Shown here piece after piece: positions 7,676-15,582 of a DNA stretch of 64,000 nt (positions within the stretch are counted from its first letter, which is position 1; the number at the start of each line of letters is the position of its first letter). This stretch comes from a virus, in the IMG/VR virus record IMGVR_UViG_3300012931_000001, positions 4,711 through 68,710 of that record. The stretch is one strand, 5' to 3'. The notes under the pieces were generated by a model, which worked only from the letters and a program-made list of their open reading frames with translations, ran no database searches and had not been told where the DNA came from. Both the position numbers and the translations under genes were made by a program.

Positions 7676-7723
7676 CAAATATAAACAATTAATATTCACC
7701 TTGCAATATTTTCCCTATATTTG
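7676..7723. promoter_or_regulatory. Divergent Bacteroidota-type -7 promoter boxes (head operon / terminase)
   Basis: TATATTTG on minus (7676-7683) and on plus (7716-7723); -33 boxes are not canonical. Confidence 0.55.
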
Positions 7724-7743
7724 TGTTAAAAATATTACCACCC

Positions 7744-9432
7744 ATGCTGAAATTGAAACAGGAACGGGTCGCTTGGCCTGCAAAATATCCGAAAGTGGAG
7801 AGGAAAGAGCCAACGATAGATGAGGAAGGCTGGGTAAAAGTGGATGGTAAACTGCTCAGAAAGGGCGTGGATATTATTCCACAGGAGGGGCTGCAAACCG
7901 AGATGATAACGGAAAACGTCGATATACAGCTACTCGGGGGAGACCCCGGGGCGGGGAAAAGCTACGGAATACTCTTAGCCGCATTGGACGGAATAGATAG
8001 ACCCGGATACGGCGCGCTAATAGTGAAAAAACAACTCGTCGCAACAAAAGGCGGGGCCGGTGGTATAATCGAAGACGCTAAGAGGATCTATATACCTTTC
8101 GCTGATTGTGAGTTTAGAGAGTCTGACAATCCGACTTTTTCATTTCCGGGATGGGGCACAGCGGTCACGTTTACCCATGCAAATTTCTCAGGAGAAAGCT
8201 CGAAATCCCTGACGGACGCACAGGAAAAATTCAAAAATTTTCAAATTTCCCATTTGTATGTAGATGAAGCAACCGACCATTCGTGGAAGGTTGTCAGTTA
8301 TTTATTGAGCAGAAATAGGGACAACTCGGGTGTCCCTCCAAAAATGATATTGACGTTCAATACGAATAGCGACCACTGGACAAGACAACTAATAGATTGG
8401 TGGATAGACGAACATGGCAATGTCATTCCAGAAAGAATCGGCGTTGTTAGATACTGTCATATCCAAGGAGATAGCGTCAGGGATATTGTATGGGGAAGCA
8501 CAAGGGAAGAAGTCGTCAGGCTGTGCGGGATCAAAATTAGGCAGGACTTGTCTGATTTCGGGATGTCCGCCGAGCAGTTGGTAATGTCGGTAATTTTCCG
8601 TCCAAGTGGAATGCTTGACAACAAGATACTGCTTTCCTCCACCAAAGGAAGGCACGCAGCGAATATCTTCAACCTTGGAGGTACAGAAACAGGCAAGTTG
8701 TATCATAACAACTGGAACCAGGAAGTTGAAGGCGTCGCAACCGTATCCCGCCAGATGATAAAAAATATGTGGGGGAACCCTACAATCGACGGAAGACAGA
8801 TGTACGCCTCCCTTGATGTGGCGGGTGGCGGAGACAACTGTGTTATGGTTATATGGAAAGAATTGACGATCGTCGCCATCGAAAATTTTGACGGGGATTA
8901 CAAACAGTTGGAGCAGTGGATTTCCGTTATACTACGGCAATACGGGGTTCCGATAGAAAATATGGCGTTTGACGCAACCGGATCTGGTTCATATCTGAAA
9001 TCGTATACTAACGGTCGGGCTATAACCGCCAATGCTCGGGCAATCCAAGAGGTTGACGAGGCGGGGAATCCCGTCCTGATGGAGCAGTTCTATAATATCC
9101 GCTCTCAGTTGATGGGTAAAATGCAATACCTGATGGAAACCGGCCAAATCTCCTGCTTGGTGGACATGCACAGATTATACCCGCATGGCAGTAAAAAAAC
9201 ACCAAAGGAGCTGATAGAAATCCTGTACGTAGAGGCCGACGAATTCCGGAGGACGACAAAAAACAATAAATTTTATTTCAAACTGAAGACCGAGTTCAAG
9301 GAAAGATACGGGTATTCTCCTGATTACTGGGATGCAATATTATATCGAGCAATATTTGAGTTGGAAAGCAAAAGCCGGAAGGAGATTGAGCAGGAACTTA
9401 CTATTGCTGATTATGCAGCGCTATGGGGATGA
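7744..9432 (+). CDS. terL: Terminase large subunit
   Basis: Walker A GGDPGAGKS, Walker B YVDEA, motif III TFN, nuclease motif LDVAGGGD, C-terminal SPDYWDA. Confidence 0.92.
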   Translation: MLKLKQERVAWPAKYPKVERKEPTIDEEGWVKVDGKLLRKGVDIIPQEGLQTEMITENVDIQLLGGDPGAGKSYGILLAALDGIDRPGYGALIVKKQLVATKGGAGGIIEDAKRIYIPFADCEFRESDNPTFSFPGWGTAVTFTHANFSGESSKSLTDAQEKFKNFQISHLYVDEATDHSWKVVSYLLSRNRDNSGVPPKMILTFNTNSDHWTRQLIDWWIDEHGNVIPERIGVVRYCHIQGDSVRDIVWGSTREEVVRLCGIKIRQDLSDFGMSAEQLVMSVIFRPSGMLDNKILLSSTKGRHAANIFNLGGTETGKLYHNNWNQEVEGVATVSRQMIKNMWGNPTIDGRQMYASLDVAGGGDNCVMVIWKELTIVAIENFDGDYKQLEQWISVILRQYGVPIENMAFDATGSGSYLKSYTNGRAITANARAIQEVDEAGNPVLMEQFYNIRSQLMGKMQYLMETGQISCLVDMHRLYPHGSKKTPKELIEILYVEADEFRRTTKNNKFYFKLKTEFKERYGYSPDYWDAILYRAIFELESKSRKEIEQELTIADYAALWG

Positions 9433-9442
9433 GTCTCCCTAA

Positions 9443-10084
9443 TTACTCGCTAAACGCATCCTCGATGCTCCATTTAAGTTTATAGAGTCTACAGTATGTT
9501 CTTGGGTATTTTATACCAAGAAACTCCGTCCACTGTTTTAGCGTCTTTGTCTCTCCCCTGAACTCTATGTTTAAATTTCTTCTGGTATTATTTGCCTGAG
9601 CCTTCGTATCGACCCATCGGCAATTTTCTGGACAATAGCCTTTCGAGTTATCAATCCTGTCTATAGTTAAAGAGTCCGTGTACATATTCTCCATAGCCCA
9701 CTCATAAAATCGACTAAAACCATCGACTTCATTCCATTCATCGCAAACCGTTATACCTCTTCCTCCGTAGTTTTTATAAGCCTCTCCAATTTCGCGTTTA
9801 GCACGATCACGCATAGCCCTCCATATTCTATAAATCCTTTCATTGCTCTTCCCGTGTGTGGTTAACGAGTCTAATAATTTAGCCTTATGCACGCAACCGC
9901 AACTCGTAGTGTGTCCAGATGTAATATGATAACCTTGGCTGATTACTTCTTCTGACCCGCAGTCGCATCGGCAAAGCCAAAATGCTCGACCTCCGTCATC
10001 TCTGCCGAAGAATTTAATAACAGTTAGCATCCCAAATTTTTGCCCAGTCAAATCTCGCCTTAACCCTCTAACCGATCTTGCCAT
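9443..10084 (-). CDS. Free-standing HNH-type homing endonuclease (AP2-like N-terminal repeat)
   Basis: DLTGQKFGMLTVI, WLCRCDCG, SCGC, YGGRGITVCDEW, TIDRIDNSKGYCPENCRW. Confidence 0.8.
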   Translation of the reverse strand: MARSVRGLRRDLTGQKFGMLTVIKFFGRDDGGRAFWLCRCDCGSEEVISQGYHITSGHTTSCGCVHKAKLLDSLTTHGKSNERIYRIWRAMRDRAKREIGEAYKNYGGRGITVCDEWNEVDGFSRFYEWAMENMYTDSLTIDRIDNSKGYCPENCRWVDTKAQANNTRRNLNIEFRGETKTLKQWTEFLGIKYPRTYCRLYKLKWSIEDAFSE

Positions 10085-10101
10085 AGTTTTTTAATTTAAA
10101 T

Positions 10102-10186
10102 AAGCCTAACGGTTCAGGAGTAGCGGTCCATCCCCGTAGGCTTAAAATACTATTTTTTTTTATATACGTCCCGCTACGGCATATAT
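10102..10186 (-). promoter_or_regulatory. Two-hairpin leader with complementary loops upstream of HNH gene 1
   Basis: Loop GTAGCGG of hairpin 1 is complementary to loop CCGCTAC of hairpin 2. Confidence 0.5.
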
Positions 10187-10201
10187 TTTTTTTGTTTTGA
10201 T

Positions 10202-10233
10202 AAAACCGCCCCCGCTTCACAGAGGGGACGGCT
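10202..10233 (-). terminator. Terminator closing the tRNA/ncRNA transcript
   Basis: AGCCGTCCCC-TCTGTGAAGC-GGGGGCGGT followed by TTT. Confidence 0.6.
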
Positions 10234-10310
10234 GTTTACGTTAACCTAAAACAAAATATATCGACACTGAGCAGTTCTGATGGTATGCGTTCGTGTACTG
10301 TTTTAAATTT

Positions 10311-10442
10311 AAGCCGCCACTAAGGACTTACCGTTCTTTTTACGCCTCAATCGGAGAACCAATTTTCGTCACCAACTTGTGATGCCGTCCGATAATCTTG
10401 TTCGCAAATACACTTAAATAAATCCGTCAAACATGGCGGCTT
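10311..10442 (-). ncRNA. Putative structured ncRNA
   Basis: 9-bp closing stem AAGCCGCCA/TGGCGGCTT, inner stems ATCGGA/TCCGAT and TCAC/GTGA; no ORF; lies inside the tRNA operon. Confidence 0.35.
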
Positions 10443-10460
10443 CTCGCCTTTGATGAGTTG

Positions 10461-10533
10461 TGGAGCGAAAGGGATTCAAACCCTTGACCTCCTGCTTGCA
10501 AAACAGGCGCTCTATCGGCTGAGCTACCACCCC
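10461..10533 (-). tRNA. tRNA-Ala(UGC), no encoded CCA
   Basis: Cloverleaf with G3:U70, anticodon arm CCTGT-TTTGCAA-GCAGG; T-loop variant TTTGAAT. Confidence 0.85.
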
Positions 10534-10616
10534 AATGAGCCGGTATAAATACATTCAGTCAAATTCCCGGCAGCCACCATCTTCTTTAGTGGTCTTTTGC
10601 TTTTAAATAAAGGTTG

Positions 10617-10691
10617 TGGAGAATAAAGGGTTCGAACCTCCAACCTCATTGCCATCAAGACAATACGCTCTACCAACTGAGCTAATTCCCC
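10617..10691 (-). tRNA. Atypical tRNA: Ala acceptor identity, 9-nt anticodon loop centred on UGA
   Basis: GGGGAAT/ATTCTCC-A with G3:U70; normal D and T arms; anticodon arm TATTG-TCTTGATGG-CAATG. Confidence 0.7.
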
Positions 10692-10785
10692 TGTTTGCCG
10701 TCTTTCCGAACTGTCATACATGAGCCGCGATTTTACTCGTCCTCGTTCCTAACCTCTGTAAGCGAGCTGATTCGAACAGCATTCG

Positions 10786-10859
10786 TGGGCGCATACGGAA
10801 TCGAACCGCAAACCTTGACTGTATAAGAGTCCTGCTCTAACCTATTGAGCTATATGCCC
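10786..10859 (-). tRNA. tRNA-Ile(UAU), no encoded CCA
   Basis: Cloverleaf; anticodon loop CT-TAT-AC; T-loop TTCGATT; one A-C mismatch in the acceptor stem. Confidence 0.85.
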
Positions 10860-11016
10860 GTTTTTCAAAAAGAAGTGTAGGCGTGTGGCGACGCCTCGTT
10901 TTTAACTTGCCAATAGCCCTGTACGTTTATCACCCGGCTCTTGGACTTGCCTGCATCTTCTGAAACGTCTGAAGGCACCATTTCAATTACCGACAAGCTC
11001 ACTCCTTTAAGAATTA

Positions 11017-11048
11017 CAAAGATACGGCGCGTTTTTGAATTATCCAAA
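11017..11048 (-). promoter_or_regulatory. Consensus Bacteroidota promoter for the tRNA cluster
   Basis: TTTG-N20-TATCTTTG on minus. Confidence 0.8.
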
Positions 11049-11065
11049 CATTTTGGAGAAAAAGT

Positions 11066-11462
11066 TTAGAGTTTTTGTTCAATTATTTTATGCAGCCACA
11101 TTCTCTGCTCGATCCTATCTAACTTAAACCCGAGATCCGAGAGTCCGCGAGTATAAACATCGCGGCGCCTTCCGTCGTCCCATGATATGCTGGATTTTCC
11201 CCTTGCCGTCATTACCGTCAAGGAAATGTTTCACGCAGGATTTTGCCCATAATAAGGATTTTATTCCATCCTTTCCGGTCTGCTTCATGTATGAGTACCC
11301 ATTCTTGCGCTTGTTTACCCATAGAACTATCGTCCAATATATCAGATTGCTATATTCTTCGGGAGTTATGATGAGGCGCATGATCTGTCCGCAGGAGTTT
11401 TTGCTTTTATAGGTCAAAATTCCGGCAGGACTGACTTCTACGGATATTTCGTAGGCTTCCAT
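11066..11462 (-). pseudogene. Hypothetical protein apparently split by a +1 frameshift near 11190-11200
   Basis: Frame 0 gives an odd tail. The +1 frame continues SISWDDGRRRDVYTRGLSDLGFKLDRIEQRMWLHKIIEQKL*, which would give about 131 aa. Confidence 0.45.
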
Positions 11463-11463
11463 T

Positions 11464-12885
11464 TTATTTAGTAAATTCTACCTCAATCTTATTCTTCCTT
11501 ATCTTATGCGGAACCCTGACGTATGTTTGCCGTTCATCAAACCGCAGATAGTAATCGATCATTTCGTCAATTTCCTGCTTCGGAAAGAAGTCGCGCGAGG
11601 ACCAGTTGTTTATCTTCTTGCGAATGTCTGACCGAATCCAACTCCAATGATGCATCGTGACAAACTCTTTTGAGAATGTCATAGTGAAGTCGGTATCCAT
11701 TCTCCGGGTCGGGTCAGACGGGTGTTTAAACGGGATGTCATATTTGAACCGCTGCGAAGTGGATACAAGCAAAGGGACGACCCTTGGGATGCTAAAACAG
11801 TCGTCCAGTAGTTTGCAATTCTTGAACTTGTAGTAATTTTCGTAATAACAGTAAACGGCCTGCGGAAGCCATTCCCGTACCACAGCCTTGGCCCTGGAAA
11901 ATTGGTCAGCCTTGTAGAATTCGTCAGAGTCGCAAATAAGCGCATAGCCGATCCCGCGCGATTGGAAGTATGCAAGTCCTTGGTTACGCCTGACCGTTTC
12001 CTGCTCACGAACAGGCAGGTGTGCCATATACGGGAAAGCTACCTCGGCGTCCACCAGTCCTTCCGCAAGTAGCGCCTGTATCTCGGCTTTGTCTAATGGG
12101 CCAATGGGTTCGCCAAGGTAGCTTGTTTCTGAAGTGAGTAATGCAATCTCATCAACATGCGGGCGAAGCTCTGCGATAATCGTCCGCAGATGCTCCGTGC
12201 CCTCGTAAGTAATAATGCCCATTCCGACTTTTATCTTTTCATCCCAATCAGGTAGCGTTGCAGCCCACGCTCGCATCTGCAGGTTTGCTTCATTATTTGA
12301 AAACCCAGACTCTTTCGGATGAAAAACCCACACAGCATCATCAACGATATTTTTCAGTCCACGATCTCTTGCTCGTTTACATAGATACTTATCCGTGCCC
12401 CATCCTATCCGATTAAGTTCAAGCGGAACCGAGAACCCCAGGGTTGTCCTAAACATCTGGAACCACCCCTCAAAATAAGGTACTTCCCTGAAGTTCCCGG
12501 TATTTCTGCAATAACCATAAGAATGAGATCGCCCTGAACTATGGCATGATGGCTGATAATTTCCAATACTCGGATTTATCGCCACGGCTTTCATGCGCTC
12601 AATCAAAAAGGCTGCTGCTTGGTCCGTAATCTGTACATCTGAAGTGATGATGCAGCACCATTCATAAGGCCCTGCTTTCGCCTTTTTTACAGCCTCGTTC
12701 CACATTCCCCCGTAATAGATATTTTCAAAATGAATTGCCACTGGGCATGGCGGCTCGGAGCCTGAATCAAAAATGTACGTTCGGAAGTACGGCTCAAAAA
12801 TAGACCTTAATCGCTGCGCGTTTTCGTTGTGGTTGTAGTTGAAAATGGTGACGACAATTCTTTTGGGTGATTGCTGGTGGTTCAT
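11464..12885 (-). CDS. Two-domain GT-A (GT2-like) glycosyltransferase
   Basis: Likely start MNHQQ at 12885. Domain 1: IFDSGS, ITSDV, GWGTD, VFHP. Domain 2: MGIITYE, ETVRRNQG, CDSDEF, MHHWSWIR. No TM helix seen. Confidence 0.75.
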   Translation of the reverse strand: MNHQQSPKRIVVTIFNYNHNENAQRLRSIFEPYFRTYIFDSGSEPPCPVAIHFENIYYGGMWNEAVKKAKAGPYEWCCIITSDVQITDQAAAFLIERMKAVAINPSIGNYQPSCHSSGRSHSYGYCRNTGNFREVPYFEGWFQMFRTTLGFSVPLELNRIGWGTDKYLCKRARDRGLKNIVDDAVWVFHPKESGFSNNEANLQMRAWAATLPDWDEKIKVGMGIITYEGTEHLRTIIAELRPHVDEIALLTSETSYLGEPIGPLDKAEIQALLAEGLVDAEVAFPYMAHLPVREQETVRRNQGLAYFQSRGIGYALICDSDEFYKADQFSRAKAVVREWLPQAVYCYYENYYKFKNCKLLDDCFSIPRVVPLLVSTSQRFKYDIPFKHPSDPTRRMDTDFTMTFSKEFVTMHHWSWIRSDIRKKINNWSSRDFFPKQEIDEMIDYYLRFDERQTYVRVPHKIRKNKIEVEFTK

Positions 12886-13922: not shown

Positions 13923-15482
13923 TTATTTAGCTTGATTGTTCGCTCCCTCCCCAGAATCTCCAGCCTCCTCCACGACAGTTGGATCGCTGGCCGCTGTCCG
14001 TTTAGCCTCAGCGTCTTTTACGGCTTCTTCTTTTGCGGCGGCCTCCTCGGCCTCTTTTCTCAGTCGCTCAATCTCCATCGGATTATTAAACGGGATTTCT
14101 CCGGCGCCGGTTTCGACCGAAGTCAGTCCGGCGTTTTTGGACATACAGATGTTCGTAATTTCCTCCGTGATATTTTTCGGCACATACGGTTCAAGCAGGT
14201 ATGTCATCTTTATTTTATTGAACTCGGAATCATTCTCGATTTTCGCAACCAATTCCTTGAATATCGAAATTAGGCGCATGAATGCTGGTCGCAATTCGGC
14301 AATCATGTTAGTACTCCATTGAACTTCGCGCCAGTATAGGTTGCGAATAAACGCGCCTGTGTTCTCCCCGGCTTTCAGTTCCTTTGGCTCGATAACCACG
14401 ATACCCAACGTCTCCCAGAGCAGGTCGAGGTTTTTTTCCAAGTCTACGGTAAATGTATTGCTCGCGTCGGCAGGTTGCAGTATCTCAGCCTTTGCGTCGG
14501 TGGATTTTGCGGCGATGGTCTTCCCCATCTGCCCGACAGGCGGCAGGTTTAGAACTCCACCTGCGACGAAAAGAATCTGGTATGCAAAATACTTGTTGTT
14601 TTCGCCGAGGTCGGAGAGTATGCGTTCGACCCGTTCGATGCCGTCTTGACCCGGTCCCCAAACGACATCCGGTATCCGCCAGTACATGACGGGGCATTGC
14701 GTTCCTCCGTGCGCTACATGACTTGTGTGCGTGAATCCATCCTCGGATTCGTCAAGGTTCTTTCCTTTCAGTATTTTAACGGCCTTATCCACGAATTTCT
14801 GGAACTTTCCGGAAAAATCCTTCTGTATCCAAACGTCAATATATGTCGGCCCGTAAATTTCGACCGTCGTGACTCCTGCGACTTTCAACATCCGGACAAA
14901 GACGTCTTTTCCATCCTCGTCCTTGGTCATGCAAAATACGTCGCCTTTTTCGTAGGAGAACACCTTGTATTGTACCACTCCGTTTTCGGCTGACAAGTAG
15001 ATGGCTGCGTCGGCTGTCCCGAACAGAGCGCGCCCCCATGAGTTCAGCGCGTCGGTCATCCCTGCCATAGACCAATGACTCCTCAGCAACGATACGCGAT
15101 CGTCATTTTTCGGCTCCTTGCCCTCCGGCCCGAACCACATCTCGTTTCCGAACGTGTGCGTGACCTTGTGACGCAGGACGCCTTCCTGAAATCCGACGGC
15201 GACTCGCTCCACGTCATCCCATCCGTCAGCGACGTTCACTTGGGAGGCGGCGTCGTAACGGAACTTCTGCCGCATGGATCGGTAAGTGCAACTGTTGATT
15301 TTGTGGGCGGTAGGGATGAGTTCGTTCAGGAAATCCGATTGCTTGAGCTTATAGACGGTTCCGTTGTCGAAAACCATCTCCTCCGTATCAAGGGAGGAGC
15401 CTGCTTCCACCCTTGGGATGACGGTTCCCGGGGCGCGGCGCGTCCATACAGGTTTTTGCAGATAATCCCTGATTTTTGTCAT
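13923..15482 (-). CDS. Portal protein (SPP1 gp6-like)
   Basis: About 519 aa from MTKIRDY; VAVGFQEGVLRHKVTHTFGN, WGPGQDGIE, PYVPKNITEE, LTSVETG; acidic coiled C-terminus. Confidence 0.85.
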   Translation of the reverse strand: MTKIRDYLQKPVWTRRAPGTVIPRVEAGSSLDTEEMVFDNGTVYKLKQSDFLNELIPTAHKINSCTYRSMRQKFRYDAASQVNVADGWDDVERVAVGFQEGVLRHKVTHTFGNEMWFGPEGKEPKNDDRVSLLRSHWSMAGMTDALNSWGRALFGTADAAIYLSAENGVVQYKVFSYEKGDVFCMTKDEDGKDVFVRMLKVAGVTTVEIYGPTYIDVWIQKDFSGKFQKFVDKAVKILKGKNLDESEDGFTHTSHVAHGGTQCPVMYWRIPDVVWGPGQDGIERVERILSDLGENNKYFAYQILFVAGGVLNLPPVGQMGKTIAAKSTDAKAEILQPADASNTFTVDLEKNLDLLWETLGIVVIEPKELKAGENTGAFIRNLYWREVQWSTNMIAELRPAFMRLISIFKELVAKIENDSEFNKIKMTYLLEPYVPKNITEEITNICMSKNAGLTSVETGAGEIPFNNPMEIERLRKEAEEAAAKEEAVKDAEAKRTAASDPTVVEEAGDSGEGANNQAK

Positions 15483-15501
15483 ATCGGAGGTGAAATTATG
15501 G

Positions 15502-15582
15502 CAAATATAATCGTAAAAAATAACAAATGCAAAAAATAAATGGGAAAATGTTTGGATATACAAGTGTTAAGTGTTACATTTG
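15502..15582. promoter_or_regulatory. Back-to-back consensus promoters (portal on minus; early/middle operon on plus)
   Basis: Minus: TTTG-N20-TATATTTG (15533-15502). Plus: TTTG-N20-TACATTTG (15551-15582). Confidence 0.8.

Follow-up and report, generated by a model that had tools for sequence, protein, structure and literature searches.

An alanine-type tRNA gene with a nonstandard anticodon arm in a tailed phage: sequence evidence pointing to redundancy

The tRNA cluster and its genomic setting

The stretch of DNA analysed here (the window) covers 64 kb of a complete IMG/VR record of 71,215 bp with direct terminal repeats, and its source genome is that of a tailed phage. ARAGORN recognises three tRNA genes in the whole genome, and these lie together on the minus strand in the following surroundings (window positions):

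7723-9432, plus strand: large terminase gene
9443-10084, minus strand: HNH endonuclease gene
10209-10225, minus strand: terminator-like hairpin with a T run, ending the tRNA unit; the homologous stretch is kept in the relative L245
10461-10533 (from 10460 according to ARAGORN), minus strand: canonical tRNA-Ala(UGC), Rfam 63.2 bits, 83 nt downstream of the middle tRNA
10617-10691, minus strand: alanine-type tRNA gene of 75 nt, the middle gene of the cluster, CCA not encoded (ARAGORN, Rfam RF00005 and a check of the stem pairs)
10647-10665, minus strand: anticodon arm of the middle tRNA, UAUUG-UCUUGAUGG-CAAUG, with the loop at 10652-10660 (Rfam, ARAGORN and ViennaRNA)
10786-10859 (from 10785 according to ARAGORN), minus strand: canonical tRNA-Ile(UAU), which opens the cluster, Rfam 58.8 bits, 93 nt upstream of the middle tRNA
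11015-11067, minus strand: promoter-like block TTTG ... TATCTTTG with a -7 box at 11017-11024, 87% identical to the sequence upstream of the single tRNA of L245
11124-11462, minus strand: ORF of 112 aa flanking the tRNA island
11464-12885: glycosyltransferase-like gene next to the cluster
13923-15563, minus strand: portal gene

The two outer tRNA genes are ordinary in structure. The UAU anticodon of the tRNA-Ile reads AUA without the lysidine route of bacterial tRNA-Ile2, and the tRNA-Ala(UGC) is the normal alanine tRNA that a preliminary description of this DNA had correctly placed beside the atypical gene. None of the three genes (0/3) encodes its CCA end. The block upstream of the cluster is of the Bacteroidota type and probably acts as its promoter, in which case co-transcription of the middle gene with both of its normal neighbours would be expected, as the three genes form a single unit behind it; the corresponding -7 motif, TANNTTTG, occurs 75 times in the window, compared with 55.5 +/- 7.6 times in shuffled sequences. 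At the other end of the unit, the terminator region (window 10203-10304) matches positions 2142-2253 of L245 at 75% identity. A further hairpin (10879-10896) lies between the promoter block and the tRNA-Ile gene, and its T run is better placed on the plus strand.

Cloverleaf and alanine identity of the middle tRNA

Scoring of the middle gene by ARAGORN, a check that had been proposed earlier, returns it as a tRNA, labelled 'Ser'(tga), at 10616-10691. The tRNA model of Rfam (RF00005, gathering score 29) matches it over its full length (model positions 1-71) with 51.0 bits and an E-value of 2e-9, and the nucleotides that are conserved in the D and T loops of tRNAs are in place. The 5' half of the RNA reads GGGGAAU UA GCUC AGUUGGUA GAGC G UAUUG UCUUGAUGG, and is followed by a 3' half of CAAUG AGGUU GGAGG UUCGAAC CCUUU AUUCUCC A. 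All 21 of the 21 pairs in the acceptor, D, anticodon and T stems are standard pairs, so that the acceptor, D and T arms are intact, as had been described, and the opinion that the gene has not undergone random decay is strengthened by the count of broken stem pairs, which is zero. The nucleotides of the tertiary core are likewise conserved (U8, A14, G18G19 and the UUCGA of the T loop), and the connector UA, the D loop and the variable loop have standard sizes, namely 2, 8 and 5 nt. The Levitt pair is G15.U48 (window 10677 and 10642); at the same positions A15:U48 is found in the tRNA of L245 and G15:C48 in the common viral tRNA-Ala. The middle gene may combine parts of two alanine tRNA lineages, or a single substitution may account for its Levitt pair.

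Alanyl-tRNA synthetase (AlaRS) reads the G3:U70 pair together with A73 and ignores the anticodon. As the acceptor stem is sufficient for alanine identity, a change in the anticodon arm leaves a tRNA-Ala chargeable. The identity set as currently understood consists of G3:U70, A73, G1-C72, G2-C71 and G4-C69 (PMC11415595), and each of these elements is present in the middle tRNA (G1-C72, G2-C71, G3.U70, G4-C69 and A73). Its first 25 nt, which comprise the 5' acceptor strand and the D arm, are found without change in at least 120 contigs of IMG/VR, where almost all of the genes concerned are for tRNA-Ala(UGC), with a few for tRNA-Ala(AGC) and one for tRNA-Phe. The matching alanine genes also share its 3' end, ATTCTCCA, and its last 8 nt are identical in more than 100 genes for tRNA-Ala(UGC). 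The alanine identity first proposed from G3:U70 and A73 thus extends to both ends of the molecule, and under the established identity rules the middle tRNA should be charged by AlaRS. As a copy of a host gene the body finds no counterpart, for it is present in 0 of 151 Bacteroidota genomes searched for a tRNA-Ala of this kind.

The serine label assigned by ARAGORN does not withstand inspection. Bacterial SerRS requires the long variable arm of class II tRNAs, and the variable loop of the middle tRNA is just 5 nt (AGGUU); because a long arm is absent, the label rests solely on the UGA triplet in the loop. By its nucleotides the gene specifies a genuine alanine-type tRNA body. A tRNA-Ala with an altered anticodon arm could come to mistranslate, to shift the reading frame or to act as a decoy, or it could be of no use.

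The anticodon arm

The anticodon arm of the middle tRNA measures 19 nt instead of the usual 17, and it can be drawn in more than one way. In the Rfam alignment the interior of the loop contains 8 nt against 6 in the model, which yields a stem of 5 bp and a loop of 9 nt. In the drawing by ARAGORN the stem has 5 bp and the loop 7 nt (C-U-UGA-U-G), and an extra U and an extra G stay unpaired at the top of that stem; these two outer nucleotides could pair with each other to give a stem of 6 bp closed by CUUGAUG. ViennaRNA favours a stem of 7 bp with the pentaloop UUGAU, as had been anticipated in the preliminary description, in which the arm was thought extendable to 7 bp. This minimum free energy fold carries little weight because the loop of the normal tRNA-Ala is likewise reduced by ViennaRNA, to 3 nt. 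By our own estimate, two extra closing pairs such as these (U.G and C-G) would arise by chance in about 1 of 7 cases, that is (6/16)^2. Of the loop that was originally described as having 9 nt centred on UGA, the two extra nucleotides stand, but its size and its centre depend on the drawing that is adopted, and GAU can be read from the same loop as UGA.

The features of a standard arm, namely a 5-bp stem, a 7-nt loop, U33 and a purine at position 37, do not come together in any of the three drawings: the 9-nt loop is oversized, the 7-nt loop has U37 and a Watson-Crick C32-G38 pair, and the 5-nt loop is too small. There is also no anticodon of the kind that reads GCN, as no NGC triplet occurs in the loop UCUUGAUGG. 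A pyrimidine at position 37 was found in 31 of 1220 unique viral tRNAs in a sample biased by the pattern with which it was collected. Eighteen of these 31 are tRNA-Asp(GUC) with the loop YUGUCYA (17 with U37 and one with C37), a recurrent variant that might owe its existence to escape from an anticodon nuclease. In the same biased sample, the arm resembles both tRNA-Ile(GAU) (UUGUC-UUGAUAA-GGCAA) and tRNA-Ser(UGA) (CUUGU-CUUGAAA-ACAAG), and its C32-U33-U34-G35-A36 is identical to the 5' side of the loops of bacterial tRNA-Ser(UGA).

Searches for the same arm in other genomes

The proposal that the same loop be sought in related phages was taken up, and no other tRNA with this arm came to light among records that are not near-identical to this one. 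The stem flanks UAUUG and CAAUG enclosing any loop of 5-11 nt gave 0 matches in IMG/VR and the JGI metagenomes, a 9-nt loop set in a tRNA frame matched only coding sequences in IMG/VR, and the pattern of the T arm plus the 3' end had no match in IMG/VR. The exact 19-mer occurs four times among 185,579 GTDB species (one genome per species), each time as a chance match and never in a tRNA. A pattern for the lineage that allowed arms of 17-21 nt retrieved only Asn and Pro tRNAs from IMG/VR, and the INPHARED phages yielded only generic tRNA-Ala and tRNA-Ile matches, to the neighbouring tRNAs.

Class I genes that nominally specify tRNA-Ser(UGA) do exist in other phages (L171, L209, L233, L163, L228, L236 and L237); their acceptor stems are mismatched and they are unrelated to the gene under study. 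The short UGA tRNAs at L171 293-366, L209 6391-6464, L233 2596-2669, L163 3619-3692, L236 4637-4711 and L237 1253-1325 are labelled 'Ser' by ARAGORN and none has the alanine set. By their predicted structures, such short UGA tRNAs look like decayed or non-standard genes.

The closest relative and the turnover of the tRNA island

The product of the glycosyltransferase-like gene has few relatives, which are 64-69% identical at seven IMG/VR loci and 80% identical on one JGI contig (P0002, L245). L245 is the closest relative that was reached, and BLASTN aligns it with the window in four collinear blocks, which are the end of the glycosyltransferase-like gene, the promoter block, the tRNA and the terminator region. 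At the collinear place L245 has a lone tRNA gene (2028-2100) for a normal tRNA-Ala(CGC) with the loop UUCGCAA. This tRNA is more similar to the middle tRNA (58/73 positions; 74% over 82 nt, E 1e-9) than to the normal tRNA-Ala of the window (50/73, E 9e-5). Because the middle tRNA is the best match of the L245 tRNA, lies between collinear flanks and shares with it the variable loop AGGUU, we regard the middle gene as corresponding to a normal tRNA-Ala.

The two tRNAs have different nucleotides on both sides of five stem pairs (5:68, 7:66, 30:40, 31:39 and 50:64), with pairing kept, and two of these pairs (30:40 and 31:39) belong to the anticodon stem; two more stem pairs have changed on one side only. 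The anticodon arms themselves are several substitutions and indels apart. The compensatory changes look like the result of continued selection for structure, and two sequences give no order of these changes relative to the change in the loop.

A 7-nt loop in relatives had been regarded at the outset as a sign of an assembly error or a private mutation. The premise holds, in that L245 is normal at the matching place, but the consequence does not, for the arms differ by several events, and these differences together with the paired changes rule out both a slip in assembly and one recent mutation as the cause. The same evidence bears on the supposition that the arm is an artefact of assembly or sequencing and that its two extra bases are absent from the real phage. 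In favour of this is the fact that the arm is a singleton; yet the difference from the arm of L245 is symmetrical, extends over many positions and keeps the pairing, quite unlike an indel error. Moreover, the three tRNAs lie in a gap of 1039 nt, and exactly this length recurs in a 71,497-bp contig of the ENA assembly ERZ27227667 and in a Logan contig of SRR15532677, which argues against an indel specific to one assembler, with the qualification that these contigs were matched by their flanking proteins and gap length and that the samples may not be independent. We consider the probability of an artefact to be close to negligible.

The composition of the locus in other relatives varies widely. 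The island is empty in L002, L247 and L252, holds one Met tRNA in L249 and L250, a series of Thr-Met-Ile(GAU)-Met tRNAs in L003, and a tRNA-Asn, a permuted tmRNA and a tRNA-Phe in L004. In L006 and L246 it is occupied by a permuted tmRNA and a low-scoring tRNA, and in L005 by a weak tRNA. Comparison of these loci marks the site downstream of the glycosyltransferase-like gene as a fast-changing tRNA island. The low-scoring tRNAs (L006 8644-8713, equivalent to L246 7644-7713, and L005 8032-8100) reach 32-33 bits; of the two types represented by the L006/L246 pair and L005, one has the loop CAACUAA with A33 and a mismatch at 31:39, and the other combines an anticodon CAU with T-arm matches that are shortened. 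Judged from such predicted structures, aberrant tRNAs recur in the island. Downstream of the Met tRNA of L249 (3930-4000) there is a tRNA-like fragment (GCAGTTGGTAGC ... GCGGGTTCGAGCCCCGC) that is called by neither ARAGORN nor Rfam.

The protein-coding genes around the island vary as well. L245 is without the 112-aa ORF (11124-11462) and the HNH endonuclease gene (9443-10084), and in it the tRNA and the terminator are flanked directly by the glycosyltransferase-like gene on one side and, on the other, by a 316-aa ORF on the reverse strand that is cut by the end of the contig. This ORF occupies the place of the terminase of the window, a match by position only. From this arrangement, the 112-aa ORF and the HNH gene seem to be indels that surround a mobile hot spot.

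The permuted two-piece tmRNA genes of the sister phages (L004 8692-8911, L006 8155-8401 and L246 7155-7401) match Rfam RF04321 at 51-55 bits (gathering score 47). Their presence in the island bears on a further reading, according to which the middle gene specifies a maintained, alanine-charged and non-decoding mimic of a tRNA, in which the body is kept and the arm is free to change. Such an RNA could lure away or soak up a tRNA-directed defence nuclease of the host or a tRNA-binding factor, or could meddle with alanine-dependent ribosome rescue, and if it were real it would fit an island in which sister phages hold permuted tmRNA genes, whose products are also substrates of AlaRS. The intact cloverleaf and its compensatory changes relative to L245 are consistent with this reading, as is the 5' side that its loop shares with bacterial tRNA-Ser(UGA) in the biased sample, in view of the VapC-type toxins that cleave tRNA-Ser isoacceptors at the GA of the anticodon (PMC10264068). 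There is also precedent in the TLD-only RNA that inhibits tmRNA, perhaps through titration of SmpB (PMC4131195). Set against these points are the singular occurrence of the arm and the ordinary tRNA-Ala of the nearest relative. In addition, the known phage tRNAs that escape nucleases retain both their cognate anticodon and a loop of 7 nt (PMC10264068). The full D arm and the anticodon arm are unlike the TLDs of tmRNAs, and models of tmRNA found no match at E <= 1 within window positions 9500-12000, although the same Rfam library and E-value threshold detect the permuted tmRNAs of the relatives; by these models the middle RNA is thus neither a tmRNA nor a TLD-only RNA. An antisense partner is also lacking near the cluster, where no site complementary to the anticodon arm was found; the best duplex with the arm on the same strand (-18.7 kcal/mol) falls inside the HNH gene and is no stronger than chance would produce over as many windows. 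Finally, the phage has no domain of the FemAB (Fem-type transferase), RtcB or tRNA_SAD (AlaX-type) families that could signify a partner enzyme. On balance, we regard a maintained mimic as unlikely.

Codon usage and reading frames

If the middle tRNA took part in decoding, the phage genes might bear traces of it. We examined 118 ORFs (20,618 codons) of the phage in alignment with relatives. All three tRNAs of the phage have U34, which matches A-ending codons that the phage often uses: TCA leads its Ser codons (21%), and ATA accounts for 33% of its Ile codons (54% in the relative G001) and GCA for 27% of its Ala codons. In the 38 genes with matches in the 63.5-kb genome of G001, TCA is aligned with Ser in 53% and with Ala in 5% of cases, and TCC, TCG and TCT with Ser in 54-56% and with Ala in 6-10%. 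Over both comparisons the Ser share of TCA (50-53%) is similar to that of the other TCN codons, and when all of the relatives are considered, TCA has the lowest Ala share of the TCN codons (4.4%). For every codon the commonest aligned residue is that of genetic code table 11, so that ATC and ATT correspond to Ile and only GCN to Ala, and TCA has not been purged from the phage genes. With respect to frame, no ORF of a relative matches two frames of the phage genome, and long open continuations in the +1 or +2 frame after TCA or ATC are in no excess over those after control codons. Among the phage genes that can be compared with relatives, the alignments indicate neither recoding nor a gene that depends on frameshifting.

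These results bear most directly on the possibility that the middle tRNA inserts alanine at UCA or UCN codons by way of a 6-bp stem and the loop CUUGAUG, or at AUC and AUU by way of GAU, as a form of deliberate or tolerated mistranslation. Several facts make this thinkable, among them the status of TCA as the top Ser codon, the indifference of AlaRS to the anticodon, the occurrence of mistranslating tRNA-Ala variants such as those of CUG-Ala yeasts and human tRNA-Ala(ACC) (PMC11415595), and the function of 6-bp anticodon stems in tRNAPyl and mt-tRNASer(UCN) (PMC7609411). The insertion of Ala at UCA that had been suggested earlier has nevertheless left no imprint on the genes, in which TCA positions are conserved as Ser, are the least Ala-like of the TCN positions and have not been avoided. 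The U37 and the Watson-Crick pair between positions 32 and 38 would be atypical of a decoding tRNA, the standard connector, D loop and variable loop are without the compensations of natural 6-bp-stem tRNAs, and competition from host tRNA-Ser would be expected. A decoder of this kind is, in our judgement, improbable.

The other suggestion about decoding, namely suppression of frameshifts through an enlarged loop that reads four or five bases as one codon (as in UCAA, AUCA or AUCAA), fares worse. It could appeal to the mutant tRNAs with loops of 8-10 nt that shift frame in E. coli, and to the few natural tRNAs, some of them in a phage, that have odd loop sizes, none of which is known to shift (PMC5009743). 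The phage has no gene split across frames relative to its relatives, however, the open shifted frames after TCA and ATC do not exceed those after control codons, and C instead of U precedes the centre of a 5-base anticodon. Frameshifting by this tRNA seems very improbable.

A proposed redundant paralogue

The sequence evidence points to redundancy of the middle gene, which can be considered redundant because a canonical tRNA-Ala(UGC) sits 83 nt away. The reading that we prefer, with a probability of about one half, is that the gene represents a redundant paralogue of an alanine tRNA whose anticodon arm has been remodelled, and which is probably chargeable, a poor decoder or a non-decoder, and not relied upon by the phage genes. 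The gene would belong to the alanine lineage and correspond in sequence and position to the tRNA-Ala of L245, its anticodon arm having been remodelled from 17 to 19 nt. The three tRNAs would be co-transcribed behind the conserved promoter block, after which the middle RNA would be trimmed, acquire its CCA end from the host and receive alanine from AlaRS. With its nonstandard arm it would then probably be poor at decoding or incapable of it, and the nearby tRNA-Ala(UGC) would cover the decoding of alanine codons, which would most likely leave the middle gene as a relaxed paralogue in an island of rapid turnover. We have counted against this interpretation the fully paired stems, the five compensated pairs and the several events by which the arm differs from that of L245, as well as the match between the central UGA and the commonest Ser codon of the phage.

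Comparison with known systems

Several classes of unusual tRNA invite comparison with the middle tRNA. Enlarged anticodon loops are known from frameshift suppressors such as sufD, SufJ, SufA6 and the 9-nt mutants of E. coli tRNA-Arg. Odd loop sizes also occur naturally, in yeast mitochondria (tRNA-Thr), in a phage and in sponge mitochondria (tRNA-Gly) (PMC5009743, PMC4238358, PMC3113583). If its stem is drawn with 5 bp, the middle tRNA shares the enlarged loop with these suppressors; unlike them it has no shifted target gene and no U directly on the 5' side of a plausible 4- or 5-base anticodon, and its extra bases can pair. The arm can also be drawn as 6 bp with a 7-nt loop, in the manner of tRNAs that naturally have a 6-bp anticodon stem. 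Of these, mt-tRNASer(UCN) carries a UGA anticodon, and this likeness is coincidental. The 6-bp stems of tRNAPyl, tRNASec and mammalian mt-tRNASer(UCN) are compensated by a short connector (positions 8-9), a small D loop and a 3-nt variable loop (PMC7609411), whereas the middle tRNA is without such shortenings and its identity is that of alanine.

Mistranslating variants of tRNA-Ala (PMC11415595) similarly combine an alanine body with a triplet that does not specify alanine. They keep a 7-nt loop and have been shown to decode, in contrast to the middle tRNA with its nonstandard loop and the absence of an Ala signal at TCA. The TLD-only RNA of mycobacteriophage DS6A (PMC4131195) and the phage tRNAs that escape nucleases (PMC10264068) resemble it in being phage-borne, with an alanine-type acceptor and a nonstandard anticodon region. 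It differs from the former by its full D arm and short anticodon hairpin and from the latter, which keep the size of the loop and the cognate anticodon. From the canonical tRNA-Ala of bacteria and phages (RF00005; L245) the middle tRNA is set apart by its 19-nt arm, by the absence of a GCN-reading anticodon and by the U37 of the 7-nt-loop drawing, and it agrees with them in the acceptor set, the D arm, the variable loop AGGUU, the T arm and the position of the gene in the genome.
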